64,000 nt of DNA from a virus: IMG/VR virus record IMGVR_UViG_3300031669_000014, positions 16,565 to 80,564 of that record; one strand, 5' to 3'. A program made the position numbers and the translations under genes. Of the stretch, positions 11,839 through 17,559 are shown in pieces. Each line of letters opens with the position of its first letter. Positions within the stretch are counted from its first letter, which is position 1. The notes beneath the pieces are model-generated. The model had not been told where the DNA came from. It was given only the letters and a program-made list of their open reading frames with translations, and searched no databases.

Positions 11839-12102
11839 TTATTCAGCCTCCATATTTATCAAATTCCTACGCTCGACCACCCGTAGGCGATGCTCCAAGT
11901 CCTGGCGAATTAGCTCCTCGTTGGTTAGTTTAATTTGAAGGATCTGAGAATCGGCGCGAAGGGTTTGGACTTCGGCCTGGAGTTGCTGGATAGTAGCCGG
12001 GTTAGCGGCAAAATACACCAACCCGTTCCAAATGATACCGTAAGCTATTCCGGCTGATATTACTAACGTCAAGAGTCCATAAAGTAGTTTATTCACGCTC
12101 AC
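11839..12102 (-). CDS. TM plus coiled-coil protein
   Basis: TIQQLQAEVQ shared with 53945-54184. Confidence 0.6.
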   Translation of the reverse strand: MSVNKLLYGLLTLVISAGIAYGIIWNGLVYFAANPATIQQLQAEVQTLRADSQILQIKLTNEELIRQDLEHRLRVVERRNLINMEAE

Positions 12103-12509
12103 GCCTCCCTAACGCTGATTTCCACCCTTGGCGTCTCACCATACCATTTACAGGCAACTAGATTGACAACTAACGAATCATCCCGCCAGATAACGCCTTT
12201 CAGCGCGTCCTTGACGCCCTTAACGATGTTGTCAATATCCGGCTTTGTCGTGGGCCTAATTTCCCCGATCATGGCCTGGTCCGCCTTCTTTTTACTCATC
12301 GATTTCGGGATGGACCGGTAAGCCTTAATTGTGACCGAAAGTGGCATATCCAAAGGCTTTTCCGGGCGGACCTCCAGGGCTGCGGCCAACACGCGGCTTT
12401 TGTAATCCTTGGATTCCGCTGGGTCATAAGTTTTAACAAAGTTACCCATTCTGGCAAATCTTGGCCGTCCTTGCGCGACAGGTTCCCCGAAAACAGTGAA
12501 TTGTATCAC
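12099..12509 (-). CDS. rusA: RusA-family Holliday junction resolvase
   Basis: GEPVAQGRPR and KPDIDNIVKGVKDAL..VIWRDD motifs. Confidence 0.92.
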   Translation of the reverse strand: MIQFTVFGEPVAQGRPRFARMGNFVKTYDPAESKDYKSRVLAAALEVRPEKPLDMPLSVTIKAYRSIPKSMSKKKADQAMIGEIRPTTKPDIDNIVKGVKDALKGVIWRDDSLVVNLVACKWYGETPRVEISVREA

Positions 12510-12941
12510 CTCTATCCCTCCCCCGGCGTATCGTTTAAATACCTTACCCAGCAGTCAAAACAGTTGTCGGTAGTATTGCAAAGCGCCTTTGGATATGGGC
12601 AACATTGGCAACCTCTTGGCGCAAGCAGATTGGCGATCCGCTCACGCTCGGCTTTCGCGCCCTCGATATATGTCTGCTTAATTATTACTTTGATAAGCCT
12701 GTCAGGTTCCCACTCGCTTAACTCTTTATGGCATAGTTTCAATTCTAAGCCTCCCTTTTTCCTAGCAGGTAACTTTATCTTACCTAACGGGTTAACTAGC
12801 CGCAACGGGCATCCTGTGGCCTCCTACGGGCATCCTTGCGCTTCGGATGCAGTCTCCTATGTAGCCCTCCATCGGGATACTCACCCAAAGCACACTTCCA
12901 GCAAAACAGATCCCCGGTTCTAGCCGGGTGCTTGCGGCAAA

Positions 12942-13253
12942 TCAGACAGAACATCCAAACCATCCTCCTTCGCGGTCGCTGATCTTATTCTGCCGCCTCT
13001 GATCCATCACCAGCAGGCTGACCTCATCCTCATCCCTGCGAAGGTGCGCCGCTATTCCCGGGCCTGGCGTACCCGATTTCCAAAGTTCTCTAAAATCCCG
13101 TATCTGCACCGGCGTCCAGCAAAAGTCGATATCTTCCAGGATAATCACCGTTTCACCCTGGGGTGCTACGGCTCCCACGGGACGACCTACCTTGCCGGTG
13201 TATGGCTTAGTTGTGGGGATGTTGTGTTTGTGTAACGTGCGATGGGATTGCAT
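12942..13253 (-). CDS. HTH/Myb-like phage protein
   Basis: W....FRELWKSG....IAAHLRR; homolog at 54987-55316. Confidence 0.6.
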   Translation of the reverse strand: MQSHRTLHKHNIPTTKPYTGKVGRPVGAVAPQGETVIILEDIDFCWTPVQIRDFRELWKSGTPGPGIAAHLRRDEDEVSLLVMDQRRQNKISDREGGWFGCSV

Positions 13254-16011
13254 TGGTGGTCACCTCCGGGAAATGTTTCTGCGATACTCTAATGCAAAAC
13301 AACTCAATCTCACTCGCCCACAGAGTTTTTATTCCTGCTCGTTGACCAGCCAGCGGGAAGCCGGCCAGCCCATCAAATAAACTGCCAAGCGTTTTCAGCC
13401 CCAGAACTTCGGTTATCCTCCGCATTATCCACTCGACACATGGTATCGCCAACCCGTTTCCGATTGCTTTATACTTTGCTGTATCCGATGCCCCAGGGAT
13501 GTTAGTCCATCCGTCTGGAAGTCCCTGGAGGCGTTCTGCCTCAAGGGGAGTTAATCTACGGACTGCATAACCGGTAAATACTGGTTTACTTTGACCATCA
13601 TCGGATCTCCGTACTTCTTGAACCTCTGATAATGCTTGTCGCAAAATCCGTATCCCTTTACTAGCTTCCCGCATATTAAGCAAAATTTCTTCTGACTGTG
13701 CTTTAAGTTGTGGCAACTCCGGCAAAGTCTCTCTAAATTCTCCGGTTCGTTGTTTGTCCAATCCTCGTCCTTGTGGTGAACATCCAGCGCATTCGGCTTG
13801 CCACACTCCGAACAGGGACCGGGGGGAATCAATTTCTGCGATCTGCCGTGGTTTGTCCTCCAGTTGTCCGTTTCTATCTTCGGCTTGTTTCTGAACCCTT
13901 CGGCCATACAATTTTGATTGCAATACTTCCTCTTGTTGAAGTGAAGCAAGGATTCCATGTCCCCATTTGGAAAACGCTTCCTCTCCAATTTCTTTCCGCA
14001 GTGCTCGCAATATCTCAATGGTGTTTCTTTCATCGGCATTACCATCAATTTCACTCCCTTTTGGTTCAATAACAATATTGTCAGTGTCGCCCCGATGTGA
14101 CATATTTGCCTTGGCTAAAAGCGTGTTGGCCGGGGCAGGATAAGCCACCGCTTGTCCTCCAGCCAAATCAAGAGTATAAGCAACTTCTTCGCATATCCCT
14201 AACCCATTCGATCCGGTCTGGTCAGTCTTGCATACATAGGTTGGTTGAGCAACAAACGTCTGCTGTTTCATCCCCGGTTCTGCCGCCAATGCCCCGGCTT
14301 TACCTTTTAAATCTCTTACCTCGTCGCGCTGGTTTTGGGCAAAGACTATAGGTTCCACAACATACGTCGTACTACTTGGCTTATCTGCCTTGCTTGCCTG
14401 TGACCGCAGGGTGTGGGTTATTTCATGTTGGCCACCAGGACCGTAAGCCACAGGTATCAATGTTTCCGTCTCCGGGTCATATCGCCGACCGGTCCCGGTC
14501 GTTACGCACTGGGCAACGGCGTGAGCAGCACCCCGGCTATCAAGCGTAAACATCTTGCCATCATCCCTAAAACCCGGCCCTTGCGCCCCAGCTTCGTCCT
14601 TGCGCCCAATAATGCTGTGTTGAATAGCTATACACTGCGTCGCTCGATCAGTGTCCAAAGCACCTATTACGGGTCCGTTTACGTGGTCTTGGCGACCGTT
14701 AAAGGCGATTGGCAGCAGATACAATCCTGTTTTTGCCCCGCCTCCACCACCACCAGCTTTCAAAGTTACGCTTTTCCTGGCATTTATTGTTATACGGTCT
14801 GATGTTTGGTCAAGGTTGACTGTTGTTTCAACGCCATCTCCAACACAGGCGGCAACTTCTTCCCTCGCTTTTCGGCCCTCCGGAGAATCCCCTGACAGGC
14901 TTTGCTCGACAAAAAGTATTTCTCCGGCACATTCGCCTCCAAAATGTCGCTCAAGTTGCTCTGTACAGTTGGATGCTCTATCGAGATAATCATTCCAACG
15001 CTGAACCCATTCCAGTTCTGTAAACAAGTTGCTGCTTGACTGTCTCGCATAGTTCATACACTCCTTTGTCACGGTTAAAAGTAACGATTCCGAGTTGTAG
15101 AAGTCCTGGTAAGAGTTGCTCAACTGAACGATGAGCTCTGCCATGCTCAGACCTAGAAGTGAACAGGTGTAAATTGTCAATTGTGTCGTGTTGCTTATCA
15201 GTGTCGATGTGGTGGACGAGTTCGCCAGGCTGTAGGCTTCTTCCCAAATGTTCTTCCATAACTTCAATATGTCTGAATATCTCTTTTCGTTTGCCGTTCT
15301 TGTCTGGTGGTCTTCTAATTGCATATCCCTTTGTAAATCTATAATCAACGTGCCTAAATGGGACTCCAAGCTTTTGTGCTCTATCAGAAGTATCGTTAAT
15401 GTCTCTGCCAAGTTCTCCAGCAATATCAACCAGTTTTCTTCCGTTTTTATTCCGAATAACCTCATCCTCCGCAGTAGTCCATCTTTTGCATCTTTTTTTA
15501 GGGGATAGTCCGATTTTAACAGCTCGATGCCTGACGCTCGTAATTGTTCTACCAAGACGTATTGCAATATCTCGATGATTAGTTGAGTAATAATGCTCAC
15601 GGATATAATCGTCTTGTTCTGGAGTATATAATTTACGCTTACCCATACTGCAAAAATCCTCCTTCTGCGCTGCGGAACCCCCATATTCTGAGCATCCAAA
15701 ACAGTCATATCAACTACAAAACCAAGTTCCTCCATGGAATCCAATACCGACTCAATATCTTTACTGCCATTACTCGAAAATGCCCCTGGAACATTTTCCC
15801 ATATGCAAACTTTTGGGTATTCTCCGTTGGTGGCTGATTGCATTTCATGGATTATCCTCACCGCCTCGTTAAAAAGTCCTGACCTTGCACCTTCCAGACC
15901 AGCACGTTTACCGGCCACACTCAAGTCCTGGCAGGGTGAGCCGAAGGTTATTATGTCAACGGGGGCTATTCTGCCGCCGTGGATGTCGGTTACACTGCCA
16001 AGGTGCTTCAA
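13207..16011 (-). CDS. C5 cytosine DNA methyltransferase, circularly permuted, with two large insertions
   Basis: Motifs IV (GSPCQ), VI (ENV), VIII (QRRRR), IX (RRLTPLEAERLQG) and X (GNG), then motif I (SLFDGLAG) at the C-terminus. Confidence 0.92.
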   Translation of the reverse strand: MKHLGSVTDIHGGRIAPVDIITFGSPCQDLSVAGKRAGLEGARSGLFNEAVRIIHEMQSATNGEYPKVCIWENVPGAFSSNGSKDIESVLDSMEELGFVVDMTVLDAQNMGVPQRRRRIFAVWVSVNYILQNKTIISVSIITQLIIEILQYVLVEQLRASGIELLKSDYPLKKDAKDGLLRRMRLFGIKTEENWLILLENLAETLTILLIEHKSLESHLGTLIIDLQRDMQLEDHQTRTANEKRYSDILKLWKNIWEEAYSLANSSTTSTLISNTTQLTIYTCSLLGLSMAELIVQLSNSYQDFYNSESLLLTVTKECMNYARQSSSNLFTELEWVQRWNDYLDRASNCTEQLERHFGGECAGEILFVEQSLSGDSPEGRKAREEVAACVGDGVETTVNLDQTSDRITINARKSVTLKAGGGGGGAKTGLYLLPIAFNGRQDHVNGPVIGALDTDRATQCIAIQHSIIGRKDEAGAQGPGFRDDGKMFTLDSRGAAHAVAQCVTTGTGRRYDPETETLIPVAYGPGGQHEITHTLRSQASKADKPSSTTYVVEPIVFAQNQRDEVRDLKGKAGALAAEPGMKQQTFVAQPTYVCKTDQTGSNGLGICEEVAYTLDLAGGQAVAYPAPANTLLAKANMSHRGDTDNIVIEPKGSEIDGNADERNTIEILRALRKEIGEEAFSKWGHGILASLQQEEVLQSKLYGRRVQKQAEDRNGQLEDKPRQIAEIDSPRSLFGVWQAECAGCSPQGRGLDKQRTGEFRETLPELPQLKAQSEEILLNMREASKGIRILRQALSEVQEVRRSDDGQSKPVFTGYAVRRLTPLEAERLQGLPDGWTNIPGASDTAKYKAIGNGLAIPCVEWIMRRITEVLGLKTLGSLFDGLAGFPLAGQRAGIKTLWASEIELFCIRVSQKHFPEVTTNAIPSHVTQTQHPHN
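13551..14045 (-). CDS. HNH endonuclease nested out of frame in the MTase gene
   Basis: CSECG..DVHHKDEDWTNNEPENLERLCRSCH; GGGAGTG RBS before ATG 14045. Confidence 0.85.
   Translation of the reverse strand: MVMPMKETPLRYCEHCGKKLERKRFPNGDMESLLHFNKRKYCNQNCMAEGFRNKPKIETDNWRTNHGRSQKLIPPGPCSECGKPNALDVHHKDEDWTNNEPENLERLCRSCHNLKHSQKKFCLICGKLVKGYGFCDKHYQRFKKYGDPMMVKVNQYLPVMQSVD
14790..15050 (-). CDS. Alternative-frame MTase beta-polypeptide-like protein
   Basis: LSDILEANVPEKYFLSSKACQGILRRAEKRGKKLP resembles the M.EcoHK31I beta-type alternative-frame product; AAAGGAG RBS. Confidence 0.7.
   Translation of the reverse strand: MRDSQAATCLQNWNGFSVGMIISIEHPTVQSNLSDILEANVPEKYFLSSKACQGILRRAEKRGKKLPPVLEMALKQQSTLTKHQTV
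14990..15646 (-). CDS. HNH endonuclease with N-terminal Myb/HTH-like repeats, nested out of frame in the MTase gene
   Basis: RHIEVMEEHLGRSL...ELVHHIDTDKQHDTIDNL...SEH; AAGGAGG RBS. Confidence 0.85.
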   Translation of the reverse strand: MGKRKLYTPEQDDYIREHYYSTNHRDIAIRLGRTITSVRHRAVKIGLSPKKRCKRWTTAEDEVIRNKNGRKLVDIAGELGRDINDTSDRAQKLGVPFRHVDYRFTKGYAIRRPPDKNGKRKEIFRHIEVMEEHLGRSLQPGELVHHIDTDKQHDTIDNLHLFTSRSEHGRAHRSVEQLLPGLLQLGIVTFNRDKGVYELCETVKQQLVYRTGMGSALE

Positions 16012-16026
16012 CGGTGATCACCTCGC

Positions 16027-16464
16027 CTAAAAGTTAACATCAATCTTTTCCCCTTGCAGGATCCGCCGGTCTGTCTGCGTCGCCCAGCTCGGGGCCATCG
16101 GCCAGCCGTTTAATCTGTCGCCTGCCTTACACGGGCACCGGCAGTAGCGATCTTCCCCTTCCTGTAAAACTGTGATATAACCCCCGCCGCCACAAACGGA
16201 GCAACCCGTTTTTTTTAGTGGCTGAAAGGCTGTATTGCGCTGATCGTCCTTAATACTTTGTATTGCGCCCTGGATATCTGCAACCGTGGGGAAGAATTTT
16301 GCCGTGGCCAGCACCTTTTTAAGCGCTTCTTTAACCTGCGGATAAGGTAATTCCCCTAACATTTCTTCCCAAGTCATCCCAATTTGTACAAGTTCTTTAT
16401 TCTGGATACTTGGGAAACTTCCATAAGCTAGAGTTATTAAACTTTTAATCTCCTGTTTATTCAC
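16027..16464 (-). CDS. Helicase loader/inhibitor-like protein (G39P-like) with Zn finger
   Basis: W.EML.ELPY..V..AL..V....KFFPTVADI; directly after the initiator. Confidence 0.7.
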   Translation of the reverse strand: MNKQEIKSLITLAYGSFPSIQNKELVQIGMTWEEMLGELPYPQVKEALKKVLATAKFFPTVADIQGAIQSIKDDQRNTAFQPLKKTGCSVCGGGGYITVLQEGEDRYCRCPCKAGDRLNGWPMAPSWATQTDRRILQGEKIDVNF

Positions 16465-17227
16465 TGTTCGCCCACTCCTCTAAAGCCTGTCTTCCGGTTG
16501 ACCAACCTTCCTGGCTTTGTCCGCCCTCATGGTATTCATCCTCCCAACCTTTAGCATTTAGCCAGGTTGCCGGATGGGGAATCCATTTCCCATTTTCCTT
16601 TGTCCACCCCGCCGAAGTCTTGGCCCGCTTTAACGCATCAAGAATGACTGCTAGAAGCTGTTCGTCCGGTTTGATTTTATTCCATGCTTTTTCAGCCTGG
16701 CCCTTAGACTTTTTATTTGGATATGATTGCCAAAATTCGTCAAACATTTCTTGATGATTTATTTTTTCTTGCGCAAGTATTTTAAGATCTTTATTCTTTA
16801 CATTCTTTACATTCTTTACATTCTTGTTTGTGTTCATTTGTTGTTCATTTGCTGTTCGTTTGTTGTTCATTTGTTGTTCATTTTGTTGTTCAGGTTGGTC
16901 CCCTTCCCCCTGATAAAAAGCCCAATTCTCAATGGTTACAATAGAAAATTTGTTGTTCGGCTGGATGACCAATCTTTCACTCGATTCTAATTTTTTTACG
17001 TAACGATACAGTGACGAGGGATGTAGCTTTAATTCTGCCGCAGCCTTGTCTCTGCCGAAGACAAATTGCCCTGGTTTTAGGATAACTTTTTGAAGTCCAA
17101 CAAGTTGCTCATGCTCTTTATGACTGGCTTTAAGTAAACACCACACCCAAACTTTAAGGAGGTTCTCATTGTCAAATAACGGGTTGTCTAATAAACACCG
17201 GTGAAGCTTGATGTAGCCGCTTGCCAT
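16457..17227 (-). CDS. Phage replication initiator (replisome organizer)
   Basis: GYIKLHR N-terminus, internal repeats, FDEFW..YP.K and PHPATWLN C-terminal domain. Confidence 0.88.
   Translation of the reverse strand: MASGYIKLHRCLLDNPLFDNENLLKVWVWCLLKASHKEHEQLVGLQKVILKPGQFVFGRDKAAAELKLHPSSLYRYVKKLESSERLVIQPNNKFSIVTIENWAFYQGEGDQPEQQNEQQMNNKRTANEQQMNTNKNVKNVKNVKNKDLKILAQEKINHQEMFDEFWQSYPNKKSKGQAEKAWNKIKPDEQLLAVILDALKRAKTSAGWTKENGKWIPHPATWLNAKGWEDEYHEGGQSQEGWSTGRQALEEWANSE
16791..16892. repeat. Iteron-like repeats, putative lytic origin (phage A)
   Basis: Tandem ATTCTTTAC and repeated TTGTTGTTCAT units inside the initiator gene. Confidence 0.7.
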
Positions 17228-17559
17228 CCCCGCGCCTCCCGCTCATATCTGATCTCCCCACGCCGGCTATGCCGCCCTTACCCCCCGTGACTCTAAAACA
17301 AACTCAACTGGTCAAGATTCTTTGCCGCCATTGGATTCAGCCAACACTCCCCGCACGTCCGCCGGTGTAACTCCGTCTCTCTGCTCACGGTACACTTGGA
17401 GAGGCACCCCTCGCGGCGGACTTGGCAGCGGCAGGTTGGGTTTGTCACGCCTTCTCCCCCTCCTTCGGCGGCGGCACATCAGCTCCGCACTCTACACAGC
17501 GCCAGGTCCCCTCCGCATCTTCCGACCAGCGCTCTTCCCCGCATCCGGGGCAAATCCTT

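Follow-up and report, generated by a model that had tools for sequence, protein, structure and literature searches.

A putative HNH homing-endonuclease gene hidden out of frame in a phage C5 DNA methyltransferase gene, with its proposed start signals in re-coded host codons

The methyltransferase locus and insert 1

The 64,000-nucleotide stretch of DNA analysed here (hereafter the window) is part of IMGVR_UViG_3300031669_000014, a virus record of 80.5 kb in IMG/VR, which is present in three soil metagenomes. This report concerns a C5 DNA methyltransferase (MTase) gene of this virus and a gene for an HNH endonuclease, HNH1, which lies in another reading frame within an insertion of the MTase coding sequence (insert 1). 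The features on which the argument rests, including the open reading frames (ORFs) and the Shine-Dalgarno (SD) sequences, are as follows:

13207-16011, minus strand: C5 MTase ORF, 934 codons, stop-free, with a PF00145 profile match
16017-16024, minus strand: SD sequence GAGGTGAT of the MTase, 5 nt upstream of the TTG, read from the sequence
15658-15672, minus strand: motif VIII codons Q114-R118 of the MTase (CAG CGC AGA AGG AGG), in which AAGGAGG at 15658-15664 is the proposed SD sequence of HNH1
15644-15646, minus strand: ATG of HNH1, made up of the wobble A of V122 (GTA) and the TG of W123, from the sequence and the comparison of alleles
14946-15641, minus strand: insert 1 relative to empty alleles, 696 nt (232 codons), from the spacing in empty alleles and from metagenome junctions
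14990-15646, minus strand: HNH1, an endonuclease of 218 aa with an HNH_3 domain and, at its N-terminus, two helix-turn-helix-like repeats, from the ORF and a profile match
14790-15050, minus strand: ORF3, 86 aa, in the +1 frame, a beta-like 'KYFLS' domain, from its conserved frame, with its start and an AAAGGAG SD sequence inside insert 1
13207-13400, minus strand: permuted C-terminal tail of the MTase with motifs I-II (LGSLFDGLAGF ... WASEIE), from motif position and structure prediction with AlphaFold2 (AF2)

In a Pfam search the 934-aa MTase product matched PF00145 (E=3e-46), and no other Pfam family was found. The ORF begins at 16011 with a TTG start codon, and motifs IV (PCQ), VI (ENV), VIII (QRRRR), IX (RRLTP), X (GNG) and I (FDGLAG) are all present. 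With TRD standing for the target recognition domain and insert 2 for a second insertion described below, they are arranged as IV-VI-VIII-(insert 1)-TRD-(insert 2)-IX-X-I/II rather than in the canonical order from I to X, and the MTase is circularly permuted since motifs I-II lie at its C-terminus.

Insert 1 separates QRRRRIFAVW, which starts at residue 114 (15672), from FGGECAGEILF, which starts at residue 357 (14943), and the 233 codons between W123 and F357 are free of stops in the single 934-codon MTase ORF, as a first-pass annotation of this DNA had claimed. The span given there, 14945-15670, does contain the insert and is slightly too wide, covering motif VIII codons as well. GVPQ and KYFLS are separated by 763 nt here in comparison to exactly 67 nt in 65 related empty viral-contig alleles, which gives an insert of 696 nt. 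Each of the three soil runs has contigs which agree with the window as far as 14945 and from there lead directly into motif VIII, so that the insert occupies exactly 14946-15641; read in the MTase sense, with a slash at the junction, the empty alleles of the three soil metagenomes are QRRRRVFVVC/DFGGECAG, QRRRRIFVVC/D... and QRRARIFLVA/D.... A joint from 14945 to 15830 in run X3, with only 30 letters on one side, was not taken for a bridged empty allele.

No 15-mer in this region is better conserved than the empty site, CTTGTCGCAGATTTT, which has a majority-base frequency of 95% among 61 distinct sequences, and the sequence across the empty target is ...GTTGTCTGCGATTTTGGAGGCGAATGTGCC.... Insert 1 thus occupies the most conserved, doubly coded DNA of the MTase gene, which is so conserved because two reading frames are constrained there. 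In the protein it is placed at the hinge after the motif VIII strand, a position at which natural and engineered C5 MTases tolerate a split (PMC2836561). Its GC content is 41.6% in comparison to 47.5% for the whole MTase gene, and no match to insert 1 was found in phages by blastn. The 3' end of the insert was considered as a duplicate of motif VIII DNA and rejected as such, the DNA similarity upstream of the LS.ILE codons being weak; a short repeat around R-I-x-x-V is the sole duplication claimed for insert 1.

The 218-aa HNH protein that the first-pass annotation had seen in another frame corresponds to the ORF at 14990-15646, which runs in frame -1 (offset 2) relative to the MTase frame. 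HNH1 matches PF13392 HNH_3 with 28.9 bits (cut-off 24.8) together with several PHROG HNH families, and its N-terminal repeats resemble D5-like transcriptional regulators. Full-length relatives which share both the site and the relative frame were found in 11 other lineages with 40-55% identity, namely L001, the cluster J mycobacteriophages (e.g. KashFlow, Thibault) and nine further viral-contig lineages, and the catalytic H-N-H (HHID...DNL...H..AH) is kept in 11 of the 12 lineages. When 50,697 phage records were searched by tblastn, HNH1 matched cluster J alone among the mycobacteriophages, and no F1, A1 or E phage was matched by either HNH1 or HNH2, the nuclease of insert 2. A distant relative (L104) is located after motif VIII of an ordinary C5 MTase, and two related genes (L113, L127) are free-standing with ordinary SD sequences. 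Relatives of HNH1 that had been called as genes numbered 6 among 5.8 billion proteins; a PDB sequence search with HNH1 returned nothing meaningful, and a scan of genome contigs returned one partial match of 28% identity, in a metagenome-assembled genome of Planctomycetota. At L107:2013-4076, in an ordinary C5 MTase without the permutation, a 33%-identical relative lies out of frame between motifs VI and VIII.

The open host frame and the question of splicing

To test the open MTase frame against chance, the HNH protein was held fixed and its synonymous codons were redrawn. The results showed that for insert 1 the MTase frame was open in 0 of 20,000 resamplings, with 5.5-9.9 stops expected, and that for 11 related filled alleles it was open in 0-5.5% of resamplings, while all 12 filled lineages have 0 stops in this frame. 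For the distant relatives L104 and L107, the MTase frame was open in 1/5000 and 4/5000 permutations, respectively. The insert is 690-711 nt long where its length is measurable, and every length is a multiple of three. The stop-free MTase frame across the insert is kept by selection, which argues that the insert is translated as a passenger peptide. Pairwise identity inside insert 1 is 43-46% in the HNH frame in comparison to 25-33% for the MTase frame, and for the stop-rich third (dead) frame it amounts to 33-36%. A peptide which is kept open yet is conserved no better than the dead frame points to a translated passenger linker.

The AF2 model of the MTase was built on 87 sequences; an earlier model from 8 sequences, with a mean predicted local distance difference test (pLDDT) of 42, was set aside. 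In the model, residues 1-122 and 812-917 fold together as the catalytic core (pLDDT 77-96), the permuted tail packs into this core (pLDDT 86-94), and the TRD lies outside the model. The read-through peptide of insert 1 (residues 123-356; 14944-15645) exits after the strand 117-125 and is predicted as eight long helices. These helices may be real or may be an echo of covariation in the HNH frame.

These observations bear on two ways in which the insert might be removed. The first is a group I or other self-splicing intron which carries the HNH ORF and is spliced out of the mRNA; HNH genes are common in phage group I introns, and cluster J mycobacteriophages, which have a homologous insert, have proven introns elsewhere (PMC3706429). 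However, an Rfam scan of 12000-17500 gave no match at E<=1 and revealed no conserved group I ribozyme core, only 44 nt of insert 1 lie outside the HNH1 ORF, and the lengths are always multiples of three. Splicing would moreover remove the need for an open frame, so that a host frame which is stop-free in 14 lineages counts against it, and we regard an intron as very improbable. The second is an intein-like or otherwise self-excising protein element, to which the insertion in frame in a conserved motif region would be suited, as with inteins, and which finds a parallel in the true inteins (Hint, LAGLIDADG) of the family members P0039 and P0074. Yet Pfam found no Hint or intein domain in the 934-aa product, and at the junctions (...AVW/VSV... 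and ...LERH/FGG) neither the first residue nor the +1 residue is C, S or T and a terminal HN is absent, which bears out the earlier remark that intein terminal motifs are not visible. Since in addition the MTase-frame sequence is conserved no better than the dead frame and the predicted long helices are not a Hint fold, the likelihood of such an element is next to negligible. As judged from the sequence features taken together, insert 1 is very unlikely to be an intron or an intein.

The HNH1 start signals in MTase codons

The R116-R118 codons AGA AGG AGG form AAGGAGG (15664-15658), and the ATG of HNH1 follows after 11 nt, in agreement with the SD sequence that had been proposed from the Arg codons in the first-pass annotation. 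The start codon as well lies in host codons, which that annotation had not claimed: the ATG is 3 nt upstream of the insert boundary (15642-15643 plus G15641, an ambiguous junction base). Both the SD sequence and the start codon of HNH1 are therefore situated upstream of the insert, in re-coded MTase codons.

When the Arg codons were compared between filled and empty alleles, those of the AGGAG type proved to be nearly confined to the filled ones. Of the 12 Arg codons that motif VIII has in the first three filled lineages, 5 are AGG, in comparison to 3/232 positions in 58 distinct empty alleles, and the string AGGAG(G) occurs in all three of these filled lineages and once among the 58 empty alleles. 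In KashFlow, motif VIII uses AGG AGG although AGG makes up only about 10% of the Arg codons of this phage. The energy of the duplex with the anti-SD sequence was -12.2 kcal/mol for the present allele, and the median was -9.3 kcal/mol for filled (n=12 lineages) in comparison to -1.5 kcal/mol for empty alleles (n=44 alleles), with a Mann-Whitney p of 1.3e-7 that is uncorrected for shared ancestry. All filled alleles have A or G as the wobble base that completes the start codon, which gives ATG or GTG; at the same position 40 of 44 empty alleles have C (GTC), and none has A. The spacing from the SD sequence to the start is 11-14 nt in filled alleles, and 11 nt falls inside the range used in this phage.

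The same stretch holds a U-run (AGG AUU UUU G), on which a -1 ribosomal slip might fuse the HNH to the N-half of the MTase with no internal initiation. Upstream of the ATG the HNH frame has a further 21 codons without a stop, and the U5 run comes after the SD-like AGGAGG, both of which speak for such a slip. But the run departs from the canonical heptamer X XXY YYZ, and it is unconserved in the other filled alleles, in which an ATG or GTG at the same place is conserved; we consider a fusion by slippage to be extremely unlikely.

A conserved +1-frame ORF interrupted and restarted by insert 1

The ATG of ORF3 at 15050 stands 10 nt after AAAGGAG, a second ATG at 14993 overlaps the HNH1 stop as ATGA, and from 14990 to 15050 there are ORFs in all three frames. 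After motif VIII, the +1 frame encodes L.(D/Q)ILE..VP.KY(F/Y)LS.KAC.GILRRA..RGK.LP in all 68 loci examined (e.g. L009-L089), and the KYFLS peptide has 3470 relatives. Over the KYFLS stretch the pairwise identity is 70% in the +1 frame in comparison to 38% in the MTase frame, 52% of the differences fall on third codon positions of the +1 frame, and the MTase frame is never with a stop. From this pattern it is the +1 frame, and not the MTase frame, that is under purifying selection here. The KYFLS peptide runs in frame into TRD-IX-X in P0127, L040, L054 and L088, the last three of which have a split or frameshifted architecture.

In empty alleles the +1-frame ORF begins about 95 codons upstream, and insert 1 interrupts it. 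An ATG lies inside the insert, 43-46 codons before the KYFLS tyrosine, in 7 of the 7 measurable filled lineages. Insert 1 thus both cuts a conserved +1-frame ORF and supplies it with a new SD sequence and ATG, an arrangement that goes beyond what the first-pass annotation described. For a complex of ORF3 with the MTase body, structure prediction gave a score of 0.45 in comparison to 0.00 for the best control, with a partner pLDDT of at least 61 and runs agreeing in at least 62% of contacts. In the calibration, out of 80 solved complexes 58 came up to this mark, as did 2 of the 110 mismatched pairs; with scores of 0.60 or under it was reached by only 7 of the 80 and by both mismatches, so that the prediction lends weak support to the pairing.

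In the MTases of the gut phages FP_Toutatis (L007, ~1850-1950) and Saumur (L008, ~1960-1990), a frame change occurs at a G-run between motifs VI and VIII, whereby their annotated proteins enter the +1-frame KYFLS peptide. This frame change could be a sequencing error, phase variation or slippage.

Distribution of insert 1 and the proposed mechanism

In a tree of the MTase N-half with 147 rows, in which words in common with insert 1 had biased the sampling of carriers, all 23 carriers of insert 1 fall within one 24-row clade (Shimodaira-Hasegawa-like approximate likelihood ratio test, SH-aLRT, 98) that includes L001 and the mycobacteriophage allele, and the presence of the insert needs 2 changes on the tree. 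P0032, the 24th row of this clade, has a shortened insert with the same 3' end and an MTase frame that is still open. Carriers which form one MTase clade point to one old acquisition inherited with the gene. This reading as one invasion is qualified by the biased sampling, by the occurrence of HNH1 relatives at another MTase site (L107) and as free-standing genes (L113, L127), and by empty junctions with the clade-like flank RRRRVFVVC, which are present in the same soil metagenomes.

Taking the evidence together, we consider it likely that insert 1 is an HNH_3-type homing-endonuclease gene (HEG) inside the coding sequence of a phage C5 MTase which is removed at neither the RNA nor the protein level. 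Since the insert is a multiple of three and stop-free in the MTase frame, ribosomes starting at the MTase TTG would read 232 extra codons and continue to the TRD and to motifs IX, X and I, and the extra peptide, unconserved in sequence, would be a tolerated linker between two MTase domains. HNH1 itself would be made by internal initiation on the MTase mRNA and would cut empty alleles at the conserved site, whereupon repair would copy the insert plus the re-coded flank into the cut allele (co-conversion). At this site the element would mostly have been inherited with the MTase clade since one old invasion.

Several points weigh against this explanation. The absence of splicing is inferred solely from selection on the frame. 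A read-through peptide that is predicted as helical at pLDDT 60-92 is a poor fit to a purely junk linker. As to the start signals, the spacing of 11-14 nt exceeds the optimum, 5 of the 12 filled lineages have only weak SD sequences (-4.7 to -7.4 kcal/mol), and the contrast between filled and empty alleles is not phylogenetically independent because all carriers lie in one clade. The first-pass annotation had spoken of a homing element; homing of insert 1 is a putative activity, and the distribution of the carriers in one MTase clade shows neither recent nor ongoing homing.

The same distribution bears on the alternative that the element is a domesticated resident, descended from a single invasion, which has lost homing and whose HNH is kept for another role, e.g. 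the exclusion of co-infecting phages with empty alleles. The MTase would in that case now depend on the insert, as the insert supplies the start of the beta-like ORF. The carriers make up one clade with no clean empty member, the HNH and the MTase N-half have diverged to a similar depth (43-46% in comparison to 44-60% identity), the ATG of ORF3 stands at a conserved distance in 7/7 lineages, and the shortened insert of P0032 is still open in the MTase frame, all of which would be expected of such a resident. On the other hand, the empty junctions with the flank RRRRVFVVC in the same metagenomes, the related HNHs at another C5 MTase site (L107) and in free-standing form (L113, L127), and the biased sampling of carriers speak against it, and we take it to be unlikely, though by no means negligible.

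A further possibility, which we put forward as a doubtful one, is that the insert is a co-adapted three-frame module whose DNA provides at once for the HNH, for the linker in the MTase and for the renewed start of a beta-like subunit, and for which a catalytic motif of the host has been re-coded into an SD sequence and start. The read-through peptide with its predicted helices may then be a protein domain that arose by overprinting of a nuclease gene. If this were true, precise loss of the insert would cripple the MTase, because the beta-like ORF starts inside the insert, and the clade-wide persistence from soil phages to mycobacteriophages would be explained.

Comparison with known systems

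HNH genes hidden in this manner, of the ShiLan type, were published in 2023 and 2025 (Gosselin 2023, PMC9957025; Arsenault 2025, PMC11855218). Therefore, of the earlier suggestion of a homing class which is neither intron nor intein, the lack of intron and intein signatures and the selected open frame stand, but the class is already published, and the present case is a variant of the ShiLan-type element. Both are inserts in a phage methylase with a stop-free host frame and an HNH ORF in another frame, both lack an intron or intein signature, and in both the read-through peptide is predicted as a helical hairpin. They differ in several respects. The ShiLan HNH is 195 aa long with two zinc fingers and a GTG start 18 bp inside the insert, and HNH1 is unrelated to it in sequence and build; for the ShiLan HNH no ribosome-binding site was found and leaderless initiation was proposed (PMC11855218), whereas the SD sequence and ATG of HNH1 are outside the insert, in re-coded host codons. 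In contrast to ShiLan, insert 1 also lies in doubly coded DNA and restarts a +1-frame ORF, and its distribution is clade-wide rather than patchy. The hidden HNH of Pacc40 gp60 (PMC11855218) is likewise a second, different nuclease ORF hidden in a methylase, with free-standing relatives nearby; it differs in belonging to a helicase-methylase family and in its nuclease, and no analysis of the ribosome-binding site was reported for it.

I-HmuI of SPO1 is similar in being a phage HNH nuclease, homing-endonuclease-like, with a conserved gene as its target. Its gene is part of a self-splicing group I intron, whereas insert 1 gave no ribozyme match and is read through in the host frame. Phage HEGs that stand free (T4 seg/mob; L113 and L127 here) resemble HNH1 as nuclease genes with their own SD sequences and no splicing element, for which spread by cutting of empty alleles with co-conversion of the flanks is expected. 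They lie between genes or split a gene into two polypeptides, unlike HNH1, which is contained in the host ORF and shares its DNA in another frame.

With respect to ORF3, the known parallel is M.EcoHK31I, whose beta chain is encoded in another frame of the alpha gene (PMC2836561). Both are C5 MTase genes with a second polypeptide in an alternative frame, and ORF3 is the putative analogue. The beta chain of M.EcoHK31I carries motif IX, while ORF3 carries the L.DILE..KY(F/Y)LS segment, which follows motif VIII in ordinary C5 MTases; motif IX of the present MTase is in the main frame and not in ORF3, so that ORF3 differs in this regard from a small chain of the M.EcoHK31I kind.

In relation to the published work that we searched, three aspects are new: the comparative evidence for an SD sequence and a start codon written into host codons, the doubly coded placement with the restart of a +1-frame ORF, and a family which reaches well outside the actinophages. 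How the out-of-frame nuclease is translated was a question left by the 2025 paper, and the host-codon SD sequence and start codon suggest a concrete answer, the proposed route being synonymous re-coding of the motif VIII Arg run plus one wobble base. The elements occur in a C5 MTase clade that spans soil phages to cluster J mycobacteriophages, with up to two per gene. They escape notice since gene callers report the MTase as a single long protein, and MTase annotations with unexplained 150-235-aa 'domains' merit six-frame inspection.

A second hidden nuclease and further features of the MTase family

Insert 2, a read-through insertion of about 150 codons directly before motif IX, contains a second nuclease:

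13551-14045 (ORF 13551-14075), minus strand: HNH2, a nuclease of the Zn-ribbon type with 164 aa counted from its ATG, in the remaining alternative frame of the MTase within insert 2

The SD sequence of HNH2 is AAGGGAG, and its TAA stop falls within the RRLT codons of motif IX. The MTase frame of insert 2 was open in 0/20,000 resamplings. By tblastn, the MTase of Staphylococcus phage CUB-EPI_14 was found to hide a copy of HNH2 with 53-56% identity; the two are 56% identical in the HNH frame in comparison to 35% for the MTase frame and 37% for the dead one, and for the CUB-EPI_14 copy the MTase frame was open in 0/10,000 permutations. HNH2 was considered as a homologue of the ShiLan nuclease on account of its Zn fingers and the TAA inside ...TTAAC..., and this was rejected, as tblastn gives no mycobacteriophage match. 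Among 87 MTases, insert 1 is present in 21, insert 2 in 24 and both in 3. On the core tree insert 2 needs 17 changes for its 24 carriers and is scattered, unlike insert 1.

A scan of 13000-16600 for promoters and terminators gave 7 candidates in comparison to 4.3±2.3 in shuffled sequence, which is not above background. The permuted MTase begins with MKHLGS, directly upstream of motif IV (15960-16011, minus strand). Motifs I-II are C-terminal in 10 of the 86 relatives as well; the permutation is found in P0002, L001, FP_Toutatis gp14/15 and 8 other relatives and needs 4 changes on the tree.

In the cluster J phages, the MTases which contain an HNH1 relative need a downstream frame change, at the gp113/gp114 overlap (KashFlow, L004, 2936-3024), and in Thibault (L005) a second one is needed near the MTase N-terminus (1479-1784). 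The gene has been split differently by different annotators. These frame changes may be real frameshifts or the genes may be pseudogenes. The inteins of P0039 and P0074 (Hint_2, Hom_end, LAGLIDADG_3) indicate that this MTase gene family is a hot spot for several kinds of selfish element. Finally, the relative P0142, which is available as protein only, has a third read-through insert of about 260 aa, from RLQGLP to GWTNIPGASD between motifs IX and X, and this insert may be another hidden nuclease.

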